The position numbers were made by a program, and so were the translations under genes. From positions 18,155 through 63,318 of the forward strand of contig CAYVRY010000002.1 of the NCBI GenBank assembly GCA_964452895.1: a stretch of 45,164 nt of DNA, in the 5' to 3' direction. Below the pieces are notes generated by a model. The model was not told the origin of the DNA and searched no databases. It was given only the letters and a program-made list of their open reading frames with translations. Shown here piece by piece: positions 281 to 4,689 of this stretch; positions within the stretch are counted from its first letter, which is position 1; each line of letters starts with the position of its first letter. This DNA is from an uncultured Halobacteriales archaeon. Lineage in GTDB: Archaea > Thermoplasmatota > E2 > JACPAO01 > JAHWKR01.

Positions 281-522
281 GATCAAGCCAGCGTGGGAGG
301 CTCCAGCGGGGCGTTCTGGTCCGTCATGCCGGGGCCGCGCCCGGGCATCTACCAGTGCGTTTCCGACCGATGCAGGAAGCCCGGAGTAGTCTTTTGTAAC
401 GCGCCCAGGACGAGCGCCGGTCCGCGCGATCAGGCCGAGAATCCGCCAACGGCATGCCGCACCCTAAGCCTTACATATAGGGCCCCGGTACGCCGGAAAC
501 GGCCCCATCCGGGCCCATCGGG

Positions 523-1287
523 GTGAACAGACTGAAGTCTTCGACCAGGTTCCAGGCCCTCGTCGCCGTCGGCTTATTGATCGTCGTGGCTCTCGCCGGC
601 TTGAGCGCCGCCAGGATGAACGGAATCCTCGAGGAGGAGCAGGCCGGGGTGCGGCAGACGGGCCCCGCCCAACCGGGCTGTCACGCTCCGGACGCGTCGG
701 CGAACGTGCAGGCGGTGCTCGAGGGGGTCCCCGGCAATTACACGCTCATGCCCGGGGGAGGGGAATACGCTCCCCAGGAGTTCAACCTGAGCGTGCGGAT
801 CGAAGGCGGTCCCGGGGGGGACGTCGGCGGGTTCAACCTTTGGGCCTCCGGCGGCACGCTGGCTGCGGCCCAGGGCGAAGAGGACCGCCTGCGGCTCTCG
901 GAAGACTCCGACGAAGCGACCCACACAACAGACGGCCGCACGGGCCGCTCGTGGAATCTCACTTGGACCTCCCCGGAGGAGCCGGACGAATCGGTGGTCT
1001 TCCAGCTCATCGTCAACGCGATCGACCCGGATTCCCAGGCGCCGAGCCCGACGGACGAGTGGAACCGGGACACCCGGGTCTCGGCGGGCGACAGCGGCGT
1101 CCAGGTCGCCGGAGAGGAACATGCAGTCCGTGTGGAGGAGATCGGCGTGGGCTGGTTCGCCTACTGGGTGGGCATCATCAGTTTCGCGTTCCTCATCGTG
1201 ATCCTGCTCGTCTATTTCGTGGTCTTCCGGTACGGGGAGACCTCCAAGGCGACGGATCATCGGTCGCGCAAAGGAAAGTCGAAGTAA
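523..1287 (+). CDS. Exported Reeler/choice-of-anchor-V-like beta-sandwich protein with C-terminal membrane anchor and a single-Cys 'GCH' motif
   Basis: N-terminal hydrophobic signal; motifs GCH, GGFNL, EATH, WNLTWTSP, NAID and DEWN; C-terminal TM helix with basic tail; first gene of the Rieske/cytb cluster. Confidence 0.65.
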   Translation: MNRLKSSTRFQALVAVGLLIVVALAGLSAARMNGILEEEQAGVRQTGPAQPGCHAPDASANVQAVLEGVPGNYTLMPGGGEYAPQEFNLSVRIEGGPGGDVGGFNLWASGGTLAAAQGEEDRLRLSEDSDEATHTTDGRTGRSWNLTWTSPEEPDESVVFQLIVNAIDPDSQAPSPTDEWNRDTRVSAGDSGVQVAGEEHAVRVEEIGVGWFAYWVGIISFAFLIVILLVYFVVFRYGETSKATDHRSRKGKSK

Positions 1288-1310: not shown

Positions 1311-1616
1311 TTGGCCAAGCAGATGGGCGACATCGTTCGTTTCGAACCCGCATCCCAAGCAGCGTTCGCGGCGCTCCTGATCGTCGTGACCACACTCGTA
1401 GTGGTCGTCAACGCGGTGATGTTCATCGTGGGGCTCCAGCTCGGCTGGAACGCACCTCTGCAGCAGACGCAGTTGGGGGTCTGGCTGGCGAACACGATGT
1501 TCGGCCTGGCCTTGATCCTGATCCTTTACCGTCGCTTCTTCGTCGACGACATGCTCATCGTCAAGAAGCGCCATCCCAAGTACGAGGATTTCCTGGAGAA
1601 GTACGACATTGACTGA
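1311..1616 (+). CDS. Small 2-TM membrane protein, possible accessory subunit of the Rieske/cytb complex
   Basis: 101-aa ORF (TTG start; ATG alternative at 1323) with two hydrophobic helices and an SD-like gaggtg upstream. Lies between the exported protein and the Rieske gene. Confidence 0.7.
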   Translation: MAKQMGDIVRFEPASQAAFAALLIVVTTLVVVVNAVMFIVGLQLGWNAPLQQTQLGVWLANTMFGLALILILYRRFFVDDMLIVKKRHPKYEDFLEKYDID

Positions 1617-1669: not shown

Positions 1670-2494
1670 ATGCCCGAATACGAGGATTCCGTGCTCCCGG
1701 AGGAAGAAGAAGGCGTCGACCGCCGCCGGTTCGTCAAAGGCGCCATGGGTGCTGCGACGCTCGGTGTGGCGGGGGCGGCGGGTTTCGGGATGTTCAAGCA
1801 GATCGCGGTCCCCGGCGACACGATCGTTTCCTTTATAGACTACTTCGGGGCCCGCGCCATGCCCGGCAGCCCCGCGCCGCGAGGATTGCCGCTGATTCCG
1901 GTGCGTGTCAACGATGAGGGGTTCGTGGAGGGCGTCCCGGAGAAAGAGAGGAACGGCGTCATGGTCAACTACTTGGACCGGCTGCGCTACTGCGGTTATC
2001 AGAGCGCGCCGAACCTGAAGGACCCTTCCAGCGGGGACAACGTGTTCCGTTATTTCCTCACGGAGGAGAAGATCCACCAGGCCGCCGACCCGGAAGGCAC
2101 CTGGTTCTTCCTGGACAAGATCGGCGATCGGGTGCGTGCCGATGACTTCGCGGACCTGGACTACAACACGGGCGCGGCGGTGCGTTGGCGCAGTGAGGAC
2201 GCGCGGCCCAGCGACATCGTGACCATGATGGTCCTCAAGCTGGACCCGGACCGGTTCGAAGGGCCCAATGCCGGGGAGTTGGAGCACTTCATGGACAACG
2301 ACCACAACCTGGTCGGGTTGTCCGCGATCTGCACCCATTTTTGTTGCGTGCCCGGCTACAAGGAGGCCAGGACGAAGGCGGAGTCGTTCGGTGCCTGGGA
2401 GATGGCGTTCTGCACGTGCCACAATTCCCGCTTCAACCCGTACGAGATCACCGGCTACAACTTCATGCTCCGGGAGAAGGTCGAGGAGGATTGA
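1670..2494 (+). CDS. Rieske [2Fe-2S] subunit of a Rieske/cytochrome b complex
   Basis: Tat signal DRRRFVKG plus hydrophobic helix; Rieske boxes CTHFCC and CTCHNSRF; directly upstream of cytochrome b. Confidence 0.93.
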   Translation: MPEYEDSVLPEEEEGVDRRRFVKGAMGAATLGVAGAAGFGMFKQIAVPGDTIVSFIDYFGARAMPGSPAPRGLPLIPVRVNDEGFVEGVPEKERNGVMVNYLDRLRYCGYQSAPNLKDPSSGDNVFRYFLTEEKIHQAADPEGTWFFLDKIGDRVRADDFADLDYNTGAAVRWRSEDARPSDIVTMMVLKLDPDRFEGPNAGELEHFMDNDHNLVGLSAICTHFCCVPGYKEARTKAESFGAWEMAFCTCHNSRFNPYEITGYNFMLREKVEED

Positions 2495-2555: not shown

Positions 2556-3380
2556 ATGGCGAGGGTGCAAGGGCGGCCCACCAAGGGCGCGGACACAACG
2601 ATCTCAGGCAAGGGGAAGGCGAGCCGGGGCCAGCGCGCCGCGCTGCGCACGTTCGCCTGGCTCGAAGACCGGTTCCTGCTGCGTCAGTTCCGCACCCAGA
2701 CGCGGGAGTTCATGTACCGCATCAACATGCAGATGCCGGTCTCCCACACGGAGCGCTACAACCTGCGTGTGATCTGGTATTGGTATCCGCTCTACACGCT
2801 GGGAAGCCTGGCGTTGCTCTCTTTCCTGATCGCCGCGATCAGCGGCACGCTCCTGGCGCTCTACTATGTCCCTTCCGCCGCGGCCACCTCGCTCCGGCCC
2901 TACGGCGACCTGCCCACGGAGGCGTGGGTCTCCGTGGCGGTGACGATCACGCAGGAGATCCCGTTCGGGTTCATGTTGCGCCAGATGCATTTCTGGTCCG
3001 CGATGGTCATGGTGGCCGCCGTGATCCTGCACACCTGCCGGATCTATTTCACGCAGAGCTACAAGAAGCCGCGTGAGGTGAACTACTTCATCGGCATCAC
3101 CTTGCTGGTGCTCACGCTCGGCCTGGGTTACACCGGATACCTGCTGCCTTGGAGCCAGCTCTCCTATTGGGCCGGCCAGATCGGCCTCCAGATGGCGCTG
3201 ATCACGCCCATGATCGGGCAGTGGGCGGCGGCTCTTGTCTTCGGCGGTGCCACGCTGGGCCAGGAGACCTTGACCCGCATGTACATCCTGCATGTGTTCA
3301 TCCTCCCCATCATCACGTTCCTGGTGATCGTCGTGCACATCATGCTCGTCTGGATCCAGGGCATCACGGAACCCCACTGA
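2556..3380 (+). CDS. petB: Cytochrome b6-like subunit (N-terminal half of split cytochrome b)
   Basis: Heme-ligand His pairs in QMHFWSAMVMVAAVILH and LHVFILPIITFLVIVVH; GYTGYLLPW; TLTRMYILH; ends QGITEPH as in b6. Confidence 0.95.
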   Translation: MARVQGRPTKGADTTISGKGKASRGQRAALRTFAWLEDRFLLRQFRTQTREFMYRINMQMPVSHTERYNLRVIWYWYPLYTLGSLALLSFLIAAISGTLLALYYVPSAAATSLRPYGDLPTEAWVSVAVTITQEIPFGFMLRQMHFWSAMVMVAAVILHTCRIYFTQSYKKPREVNYFIGITLLVLTLGLGYTGYLLPWSQLSYWAGQIGLQMALITPMIGQWAAALVFGGATLGQETLTRMYILHVFILPIITFLVIVVHIMLVWIQGITEPH

Positions 3381-3398
3381 ACCACGGAAACGGATACC

Positions 3399-4118
3399 AT
3401 GCCGACCACGAAAGATATGATCCGGTCCTACATGGACGAGGTGGACCGCCTCGAAGAGGAGGCCCGCTCGAAAAAGCGCTTCCGTGCCGTGGAAGGGTTC
3501 CCGTTCTGGCCCCACGAGTTCCTGCGTGACATGGCGCTCGTGTTGATCTTCGTCGCCGGTATGATCTACCTCTCCGCGTTCATCCCGTACTACTTGGAGG
3601 CGCCGGCGGACCCGGCCGGTCAACCGGAAGTGATCCTGCCGGATTGGTACCTGCTCTGGTCGTACGGGCTCTTGAAGATCGCCGTGTCGGTGAAGATCTT
3701 CGGGGTGGAGCTCATGACCGGGGACCTTGCGGGTGTGCTCCTGAACGGGGTCGTCGTGGGTTTCATGATCATCGTGCCGTTCATCTCCCGCGGTGTGGCG
3801 CGGCGGCCCACCCAGGCGGCCGCCATGGCGGGCTTCGGTGTCTTCGGGATGCTGTTGGGGATCACGTTGTCCGTGTATTCCGTGGATGTGCTCCTGATGG
3901 AGGAATGGCCGTGGTTGGCCACGGACCTCTGGGTCCAGCAGGGGCTCTCCGAGTTCCTGCATCTGCTGCAGACGAACATCCTGAGCATCCTCACGCTGGG
4001 GGTCCCGGTGTTGGGCGCCATCGTCACCTATTTCTTCTTGAAGTGGCGCGGTGCGATCAAGGACGGGACGCCGGGTTACGAGCACAAGCTCTCGGCGAGC
4101 TATTACAAGATCCGGTAA
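3399..4118 (+). CDS. petD: Cytochrome b6f subunit IV-like protein (C-terminal half of cytochrome b)
   Basis: PFWP motif, PADP...ILPDWY (Qo-site PEWY variant), several TM helices; follows petB. Confidence 0.92.
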   Translation: MPTTKDMIRSYMDEVDRLEEEARSKKRFRAVEGFPFWPHEFLRDMALVLIFVAGMIYLSAFIPYYLEAPADPAGQPEVILPDWYLLWSYGLLKIAVSVKIFGVELMTGDLAGVLLNGVVVGFMIIVPFISRGVARRPTQAAAMAGFGVFGMLLGITLSVYSVDVLLMEEWPWLATDLWVQQGLSEFLHLLQTNILSILTLGVPVLGAIVTYFFLKWRGAIKDGTPGYEHKLSASYYKIR

Positions 4119-4212
4119 GCGGCCGGCGCGGCGTGGGTGGCAAGTCTTATCGCCCGGCCGGGCTGCTGCCGGAGGTGTGCAGAGCACGCAGGACACCACG
4201 TCCAAGCGCGCC

Positions 4213-4689
4213 ATGGGCCGTAGCGACTGGCGGGAGGTCACCCTGGCGCGTTACCGCCGTTACACGACGGTCTCCAGCCTGCTCGGTGTCGCGCTGTTGG
4301 CGTGGGGCTTGTGGCGATTGGCGCATGCGCAGTTCATCACGGGGCTCCTGCTGATCGTCGCGGGCTTCGTGGCGGGGCTTTGGACCGTCTTGTTGCGCAT
4401 CGAGGGGACGCCGGCCCCGCTCTATGAACCCAAGCCGCAGGGTCGCGAGGAATGGGCGCCGCGGGTGCTGCACTTCTACACCCGCAGACAATGCACGCTC
4501 TGCGACGAGGCCAGGACGCGCTTGGAGCCGGTGATGCGGGCCAAGGGGATCACGATCGTGGCGCACGACGTGGACAAGGACCCCGTCCTTGAGAAGCGCT
4601 ACGGGGCGCGGGTCCCCGTGGCGGTCTACGAAGGGGACGAGGTGTTCGCCTTGCAGTACGACGACCAGGCGGTGCGGGTGCTGCGATGA
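4213..4689 (+). CDS. Membrane-anchored glutaredoxin-like (DUF836-like) protein
   Basis: Two N-terminal TM helices, then YTRRQCTLCDEA ... DVDKDP ... YGARVPV (thioredoxin fold, CxxC, cis-Pro). ATG at 4213 chosen as start. Confidence 0.8.
   Translation: MGRSDWREVTLARYRRYTTVSSLLGVALLAWGLWRLAHAQFITGLLLIVAGFVAGLWTVLLRIEGTPAPLYEPKPQGREEWAPRVLHFYTRRQCTLCDEARTRLEPVMRAKGITIVAHDVDKDPVLEKRYGARVPVAVYEGDEVFALQYDDQAVRVLR

Follow-up and report, generated by a model that had tools for sequence, protein, structure and literature searches.

Rieske/cytochrome b complexes require an acceptor for the electron that leaves the Rieske cluster, and in many archaea none has been named. The question is raised by the window analysed here, a stretch of 45,164 nucleotides from an uncultured archaeon of the Thermoplasmatota (contig CAYVRY010000002.1), where genes for a Rieske iron-sulfur protein, a cytochrome b6-like subunit and a subunit IV-like protein are headed by the gene for a choice-of-anchor V family protein (positions 523 to 1287; hereafter the candidate protein). 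Does this first gene supply the acceptor? An initial annotation of the DNA had proposed that it may do so, as an analogue of cytochrome f that binds haem through one cysteine. We consider it reasonably probable that the candidate protein is a cytochrome-f-like c-type cytochrome subunit of a b6f-type complex, in which haem, as we infer, is held by a single thioether bond; the locus thereby offers a testable acceptor candidate in a widespread archaeal group.

The first gene, its family and its operon

The open reading frame (ORF) encodes a signal, a single-Cys PAQPGCH segment, a β-rich domain and a C-terminal anchor, all as initially described. C53 is the sole cysteine of the protein, and the adjacent H54 would be the 24th mature residue if cleavage occurs after LSAA (residue 30), the probable site. 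The GTG at 523 is preferred as the start because homologues have the longer N-terminus, with the same MNRLK... beginning followed by a hydrophobic stretch that is conserved among them and is modelled as a helix (residues 6–25). A Sec-type signal is assumed, since a twin-arginine motif is missing. The sequence collection's own gene call (P0001, 223 residues) begins at M32 and lacks the signal; an annotation that started from this public call would overlook the export of the protein. C53 was also considered as the cysteine of a lipobox and ruled out, as it lies 23 residues beyond the hydrophobic core. Residues 21–181 match the NCBIfam family NF041895 (choice-of-anchor V) at 49.8 bits against a cut-off of 42 (50.7 bits when searched on the genome), a family with no recorded function in the sources covered. 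Searches of Pfam at E values up to 1 returned nothing significant for the candidate protein, neither the Reeler family PF02014 nor cytochrome f. The four ORFs that follow lie on the same strand, separated by intergenic gaps of 19–62 nt, and the operon ORFs gave no CxxCH cytochrome or cupredoxin family match in Pfam or NCBIfam, which bears out the earlier description of an operon with Rieske, b6-like and subunit IV-like genes that lacks a CxxCH cytochrome and an obvious blue-copper protein.

A word-indexed search returned 12 homologues of the candidate protein; C53, H54 and the E131-A-T-H134-T135 motif are invariant in all 12, the more distant of which read G-C-x-C-H. A full profile search extended the family to 1,512 cluster representatives at E ≤ 0.001, with 466 at ≤ 1e-10 and 51 at ≤ 1e-30. 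Tallied by regular expression in 160 proteins, the motif is CxCH in 127, Cx4CH in ten, CxxCH in five, Cx5CH in one, a single CH in 13 and absent from four; on inspection, 'single CH' proved to be C-H-C-H in two of the 13 rows, and P0020 was rescored as Cx6CH, leaving ten true single-Cys rows, six of which (including the candidate's own gene call) fall in the candidate's clade. The spacing between the cysteines in the family is 1, 2, 4, 5 or 6 residues and the C-H pair is always adjacent; in haem c motifs generally, the spacing of the cysteines varies and the C-H pair is fixed. Positions conserved in at least 90% of a 144-row alignment include the Gly preceding the first Cys, both Cys, H54, G103, F104, H134, W144 and W148, among others. 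In the 138 rows other than those of the candidate's clade, the first Cys is present in 132, the second in 134 and the His at the H54 position in 135; with the invariance in the 12 homologues, this makes the Cys-His pair more than a chance feature. The candidate protein departs from the typical G-C-x-C-H segment of NF041895 in that its first Cys is Pro51, with C53 and H54 kept; it therefore lacks the two-Cys CXnCH motif of c-type cytochromes and has the conserved Cys-His pair.

Three relatives pass the PF02014 Reeler cut-off of 21 (P0020 with 31.4 bits, P0030 with 22.8 and P0102 with 23.6). Two metagenome proteins place the choice-of-anchor V domain in other redox contexts: P0117 (776 residues) has it as an N-terminal fusion to cytochrome c oxidase subunit I, and P0028 (647 residues) combines it with CARDB and plastocyanin-like domains. 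Across the phylum, 106 of 251 genomes contain the family. The phylum families f12 (20/20 genomes), f27 (37/37) and f24 (8/8) carry 4–10 domain copies per genome, many of them in open frames of 650–950 residues, so that the module has expanded far outside the respiratory operon.

Used as a lone query against the genome contigs, the candidate protein found no relative. The family profile matches 36 of 41 related genomes (family f1, 1/1; the sister families f2, 4/4, and f3, 30/32; other families of the class, 0/3), and 31 of the 41 have a cytochrome b match. A Reeler-like orthologue lies 1.2–2 kb upstream of cytochrome b on the same strand in 25 of these 31; of the remaining six, one (G008) has a cupredoxin in the slot, and five have the genes at contig ends or on separate contigs. 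All 23 operon-linked f3 orthologues with a complete N-terminus carry a canonical CxxCH (24 loci were examined, one being cut by a contig end). The initial annotation had asked whether homologues carry CxnCH at this position and stay next to Rieske/cytochrome b genes; CxxCH is present in the operon-linked f3 orthologues and CxCH in closer relatives.

In two f2 genomes (G006 and G008) the first gene of the operon encodes a cupredoxin (L029:3042-3662 and L027:4034-4447, both on the minus strand), matching PF00127 with 42.4 bits (cut-off 21.2) and amicyanin/halocyanin models at E values of 5e-13 to 9e-10. The C-termini of these cupredoxins match positions 176/180–254 of the candidate profile (hmmsearch E 5e-29 and 2e-28). 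Read from these alignments, the f2 operon is a domain swap, in which a known electron carrier sits on the same anchor and in the same slot. The DUF7318 gene follows the first gene in f1, f2 and f3 operons.

The loss of the first cysteine was placed on a maximum-likelihood tree of 92 rows (quick search, LG+G4). The candidate protein belongs to an 8-row clade (SH-aLRT 99) of seven single-Cys rows and one CxCH row, nested in a 22-row clade (support 95) whose other rows are CxCH; the CxxCH proteins of f3 group apart, in a clade of their own (support 100). We compared 23 positions at which the other 138 rows agree to at least 80%, tallying six rows of the clade, which are 47–67% identical to the candidate protein. 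All six keep 15 of the 23, including G34, C53, H54, G103, F104, H134, W144 and W148, and the first Cys is the only one of the 23 lost in all six (column 115: P, A, gap, A, A, A). The loss is therefore specific, and the remainder of the site seems to be under constraint; G34 and H134, each present in all six, occur in 94% and 93% of the other 138 rows, respectively. The only other genome of the candidate's own family (G001) has A-T-C-H at the site and keeps the C-H pair and the EATH motif. It appears that the first Cys disappeared at least twice within the clade, and separately in other members of the family, with C-H kept each time.

Predicted fold and placement in the complex

The AlphaFold model of the candidate protein (mean pLDDT 86.1) comprises the N-terminal helix, a β-sandwich (residues 62–189) and a C-terminal helix (residues 211–238). 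In VIA-align comparisons, its fit to cytochrome f is as good as its fit to Reeler domains. Residue 33 of the model is the first to align with cytochrome f and pairs with residue 1 of the latter, whereas the Reeler alignments begin at model residues 38–43; about 140 residues of the approximately 250-residue cytochrome f chains align. The model has a sandwich like that of the cytochrome f large domain, with the N-terminal haem-motif segment packed on it, and the protein has the C-terminal membrane anchor and the linkage to a Rieske gene. Since Reeler domains score equally well, the resemblance could stem from an ancient common fold instead of direct descent. We therefore propose that the candidate protein works like cytochrome f and do not treat it as a member of the cytochrome f family, kinship not being shown by sequence. 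The analogy drawn in the initial annotation is supported by the fold, the anchor, the operon slot and the CxxCH orthologues; sequence kinship was not found, and haem binding by the single-Cys form is a proposal.

A complex of cytochrome b, subunit IV, DUF7318 protein and residues 31–254 of the candidate protein, each supplied with an alignment, was co-folded. The interface reached an ipSAE of 0.81 (runs of 0.82, 0.80 and 0.81), compared with 0.00 for the best of three controls; the ipSAE mark applied is reached by 58 of 80 solved complexes and by 2 of 110 mismatched pairs. The three runs share at least 57% of their contacts, and partner pLDDT is at least 67. Residues 208–244 of the candidate protein are predicted to contact cytochrome b (residues 74–85 and 147–158), subunit IV (34–64 and 78–86) and the DUF7318 protein (10–15 and 71–82). 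This prediction supports binding of the candidate protein to the complex, although recall of solved structures by the predictor may account for some of this result, as cytochrome b and subunit IV resemble the solved b6f complex; the candidate protein has no such likeness. The complex itself looks functional, because the four haem-ligand histidines of cytochrome b (H145, H159, H246 and H261; 26 rows) and the quinol-site motif P81-D82-W83-Y84 of subunit IV (25 rows) are invariant across the relatives aligned. Haem ci on cytochrome b was considered and ruled out, as this cytochrome b lacks any Cys.

Proposed haem attachment and the alternatives

The genome encodes ccmA, ccmB, ccmC, ccmE and ccmF of the cytochrome c maturation (Ccm) system on one contig (C41), so that a predicted export signal and a haem c maturation system occur together. 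Its CcmE ends C-S-S-K-Y and is of the CxxxY type which, in the part of PMC9084895 covered, belongs to a streamlined archaeal Ccm system without CcmD, H and I. PF01578 (CcmC/F-type) is present in all 38 genomes of the order, compared with one of three from other families. Across the phylum (251 genomes of at least 85% completeness, plus the window's own), the family matches at E ≤ 1e-6 in 94 genomes, and all 94 also match PF01578; six weak family matches (E 1e-5 to 8e-4) occur without PF01578, 22 genomes have PF01578 only, and 123 have neither.

Elsewhere in the genome, a 791-residue secreted protein (C61:5584-7956; L025:285-2657) has a canonical G-C-A-x-C-H and lies beside a cupredoxin gene (C61:4733-4993). 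It has no Pfam family, and its weak PDB matches to c-type cytochromes are confined to the canonical site. About 170 residues before that site it reads S-A-[IV]-M-C-H, which is kept in 6/6 homologues and possibly marks another single-Cys haem site of this genome. A search for parallel loss of a Cys, with this protein as query in 40 relatives, found no orthologues.

In the mechanism that we envisage, the candidate protein would be exported by way of its Sec-type signal, placing the β-sandwich on the outer face, and its C-terminal helix would dock between cytochrome b and subunit IV. Ancestrally, archaeal Ccm would have attached haem c to C-x(1-2)-C-H at some 20–25 residues from the mature N-terminus; in the lineage of the candidate protein, the first Cys was replaced (Pro51), so that haem would be held by one thioether to Cys53. 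His54 would serve as the proximal ligand, and the near-invariant His134 is the most likely distal ligand. Quinol at the PDWY site would give up its electrons to the Rieske cluster, which would hand them to the haem of the candidate protein, and from there they would reach a cupredoxin or the terminal oxidase. The initial annotation had proposed the N-terminus or Met2 of the mature chain (Met32) as the sixth ligand. Met32 was ruled out, as it is not conserved, and His134 is probably a better candidate than the N-terminus because CxCH relatives differ in how far the conserved N-terminal Gly lies from the His (9 to 25 residues). The core of the earlier proposal, an electron acceptor with a one-Cys haem, has gained strong comparative support from the CxxCH orthologues, the CxCH relatives, the fold, the cupredoxin swap and the Ccm genes.

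A number of observations weigh against a cytochrome of this kind. VIA-align was the only structural search in which cytochrome f appeared: Foldseek ranks Reeler domains first, with no cytochrome f among the matches listed, and the closest solved relatives by sequence are Reeler domains, which bind no haem (the family profile matches Spondin-1 among PDB sequences at E 0.002–0.004, and a 'Cytochrome C' weakly at E 0.52). The Pfam cytochrome f models gave no match to the candidate protein at E up to 1, nor, at E up to 10, to the L009 orthologue or to P0060, P0065, P0051, P0100 and P0130. Aligned by hhalign to 50 cyanobacterial cytochromes f (of 80 petA loci fetched with a short degenerate pattern), the match has a probability of 6.2–6.3% (E 0.006; 46–49 columns); this low-probability alignment is in register with the structural one, setting C-H on C-H and pairing the next two strands and a G-G-F-N-L turn. 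We know of no natural single-Cys substrate of Ccm, and the Ccm system of Escherichia coli is reported to be unable to mature single-Cys variants. The co-occurrence with Ccm is confounded by aerobic lifestyle, and related genomes are not independent; moreover, retention of Ccm in this genome could be explained by the 791-residue CAxCH protein alone, given its canonical motif. The genome is 70% complete (PF00034 had no match in this 70%), and no RNA runs covering the locus are listed. It has eight cupredoxin-domain matches elsewhere, and no Reeler domain was seen fused to its CoxI, whose gene is cut by the contig end and whose COX1 match is preceded by an apparently non-coding frame; electrons could therefore bypass the candidate protein. 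The exchange for a cupredoxin in f2, likewise, implies that the extracytoplasmic domain is replaceable.

Several of these observations would be expected if the candidate protein were a degenerate cytochrome, from a lineage that has lost covalent haem, or haem altogether, and that survives as a structural or assembly subunit by virtue of its anchor, the Rieske protein passing electrons to the cupredoxins of the genome. The first Cys is gone, the genome has its eight cupredoxin-domain matches, Ccm systems are reported not to mature single-Cys variants, and f2 replaced the domain and kept the anchor, which is thus the constant part. A dead site would, however, be expected to drift, and the six tallied rows of the clade all retain C53, H54, H134 and 12 other conserved positions; the G001 orthologue retains the C-H pair with the EATH motif, and the apparently repeated losses of the first Cys have left C-H in place on each occasion. 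We regard decay of this kind as unlikely. Slightly less likely again, in our judgement, is that CxCH or CH together with His134 forms a metal site (Cu or Fe) or a redox disulfide throughout the family, making it a non-haem carrier or a metallochaperone. CxCH is not a canonical haem motif and the nearest solved relatives (Reeler) are not haem proteins; the copper-binding Ig-like YcnI (8um6) appears low in the Foldseek list, and one Cys with two His is also a set of copper ligands. Yet variable Cys–Cys spacing with a fixed C-H fits haem attachment and not a fixed chelate, adjacent Cys and His side chains seldom share one metal ion, and a contracted CXCH has reportedly been found to bind haem. 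The canonical CxxCH of the 23 operon orthologues, and the CcmC/F-type genes in every genome with a strong match (those without them having only the six weak matches), point the same way.

That the candidate protein is an unrelated Reeler-like or adhesin-type surface protein, merely co-transcribed with respiratory genes, we hold to be very improbable. The family does have many different anchors and includes long surface proteins with CARDB, PKD, Big_5 and fn3 domains. Against this stand the position ahead of the Rieske/cytochrome b genes, kept in 25 of 31 genomes, the anchor held in common with a cupredoxin in the same slot, and the predicted interface with cytochrome b and subunit IV, which passes its controls (0.81 as opposed to 0.00). 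A cytochrome-f-like subunit with a single-thioether haem thus remains the reading that we prefer.

Surroundings of the locus and comparison with known systems

The positions of the features discussed are collected in Table 1. The A/T-rich stretch upstream of the GTG is possibly an archaeal promoter element, as judged by eye. A weak match (NF050121, E 4.4e-5, profile positions 26–98) relates the DUF7318 protein to the membrane portion at the N-terminus of actinobacterial QcrA.

Table 1. Features at and around the operon, with positions in the window
Feature	Position	Strand	Remarks
TATA-box-like A/T-rich stretch	468..483	+	read from ccttacatataggg; ~45 nt 5′ of GTG
First operon gene, choice-of-anchor V family	523..1287	+	254-aa ORF, GTG start
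Predicted N-terminal export signal, residues 1–30: basic start, hydrophobic core, ..LSAA	523..612	+	
N33-G34-I35 and following residues, conserved N-terminal segment	619..633	+	
Pro51, at the position of the family's first Cys; makes the site single-Cys	673..675	+	
Cys53-His54 (C53 tgt 679–681; H54 cac 682–684), proposed single-thioether Cys and proximal haem ligand	679..684	+	
β-sandwich domain, residues 55–192, Reeler-like and cytochrome f large-domain-like	685..1098	+	
E131-A-T-H134-T135 motif; His134 candidate distal haem ligand	913..927	+	
C-terminal anchor module, residues 208–254: helix 211–238 and conserved cytoplasmic tail (..RYGET.KATDHR.RK..)	1144..1284	+	
DUF7318 small membrane protein	1311..1616	+	PF24002 E 3.4e-20
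Rieske iron-sulfur protein, TAT-type signal, boxes CTHFCC and CTCHNS	1670..2494	+	TIGR01416 E 1.6e-7; TIGR01409 E 0.027
Cytochrome b6-like subunit	2556..3380	+	PF13631 E 1.5e-37; PF00033 E 9.7e-37
Subunit IV-like protein	3399..4118	+	PF00032 E 2.9e-7; TIGR01156 E 1e-8
Membrane glutaredoxin-like protein, CxxC motif	4051..4689	+	PF05768 E 4.6e-13

The glutaredoxin-like gene probably starts later than 4051, since its ORF overlaps the subunit IV gene. It is kept downstream of subunit IV in G001, G002, G004 and G006 (BLASTP), and its product might serve the exported subunits as a thiol-redox helper. The glutaredoxin-like protein of G004 shares an open frame with a CxxCH protein that matches part of the family profile, with a masked run of N between them. 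Larger CxxCH proteins (CSGCH, CGGCH) are also encoded downstream of subunit IV in f2, at L030:779-2110(-) and L033:2071-3000(+); the former ORF matches part of the family profile, and the latter gave no family-profile or NCBIfam match and nothing significant in Pfam. BLASTP with the Rieske protein of the window retrieved only f1/f2 Rieske proteins (three loci passing the coverage filter and a contig-cut fragment in L028). The f3 Rieske proteins (L044-L063), of a CKHLGCT...CPCH type, were unmatched in this search, and the corresponding cytochromes b are still 38–47% identical; the Rieske subunits of f1/f2 and f3 operons are far diverged or of different origin. Elsewhere in the window are genes for a branched-chain amino-acid ABC transporter and for housekeeping functions, and no further respiratory genes were found there. 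At its very start (positions 1-231), a Lys/Arg/Ala-rich repeat frame (KKRAAKKRGKK...), open at the window edge and ending at about nt 200, could encode the end of a very basic protein, perhaps one that binds nucleic acids.

More broadly, the choice-of-anchor V proteins with C-x(1-2)-C-H could form a large, undescribed class (at least 1,512 clusters at 50% identity) of β-sandwich c-type cytochromes, the prokaryotic kin from which cytochrome f arose, with a single-thioether form made by archaeal Ccm and kept by selection. We offer this wider view tentatively and think it doubtful as a whole; on this view, the kinship with cytochrome f would show in the same fold, the distance of the haem motif from the mature N-terminus, the C-terminal anchor and the place beside Rieske, b6 and subunit IV genes. 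If haem is indeed bound, the candidate protein would be a natural single-Cys c-type cytochrome in a prokaryote with Ccm, and would connect Reeler domains structurally with cytochrome f. The series of CxxCH, CxCH, single CH and cupredoxin swap on one anchor could be used to study the evolution of haem motifs and carrier domains. The literature covered, which excludes most subscription journals and supplements, yielded no account of a link between Reeler domains and cytochrome f or of a cytochrome f-like archaeal subunit; the gene may be depicted in the operon figures that supplement PMC5600118.

Among known systems, cytochrome f (PetA) of cyanobacterial and chloroplast b6f complexes is close in layout. 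Its small domain is inserted in the large domain, whereas the model of the candidate protein is a single sandwich with no such insertion and a soluble part of about 160 residues. Cytochrome f has two haem-motif cysteines and the candidate protein one; the sixth haem ligand of cytochrome f is its N-terminal amino group, whereas in the candidate protein the near-invariant His134 is available as a distal ligand. PMC5600118, in the portion covered, describes cytochromes f and c1 as unrelated in structure. Eukaryotic Reeler domains (PF02014; the F-spondin reeler domain, PDB 3coo, 2zou and 2zot) lack the N-terminal motif segment. In haloarchaea, as far as PMC3509893 was covered, a halocyanin is encoded with a split-cytochrome-b Rieske/cytochrome b cluster and is the proposed electron acceptor. 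The f2 cupredoxin shares its slot and a homologous anchor with the candidate protein but has a type-1 copper fold, not a Reeler-like sandwich.

For C-x-C-H, the commonest form in the family, a precedent is found in anammox bacteria, where the contracted CXCH of a multihaem cytochrome reportedly binds haem (Ferousi et al. 2019, J Biol Chem); that cytochrome is, in contrast to the β-sandwich here, helical. The systems known for haem held by one thioether differ from the candidate protein in fold and maturation system, and none of them is, to our knowledge, a substrate of archaeal Ccm. They comprise the euglenozoan cytochromes c and c1 (AxxCH/FxxCH), haem ci of the b6f complex, and SfmD (PMC8262978, PMC5526843 and PMC8179489, in the parts covered). 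As these sources describe them, each has one Cys–vinyl link next to or near a His ligand, which is the arrangement proposed for the candidate protein, and SfmD combines its one thioether with bis-His ligation.

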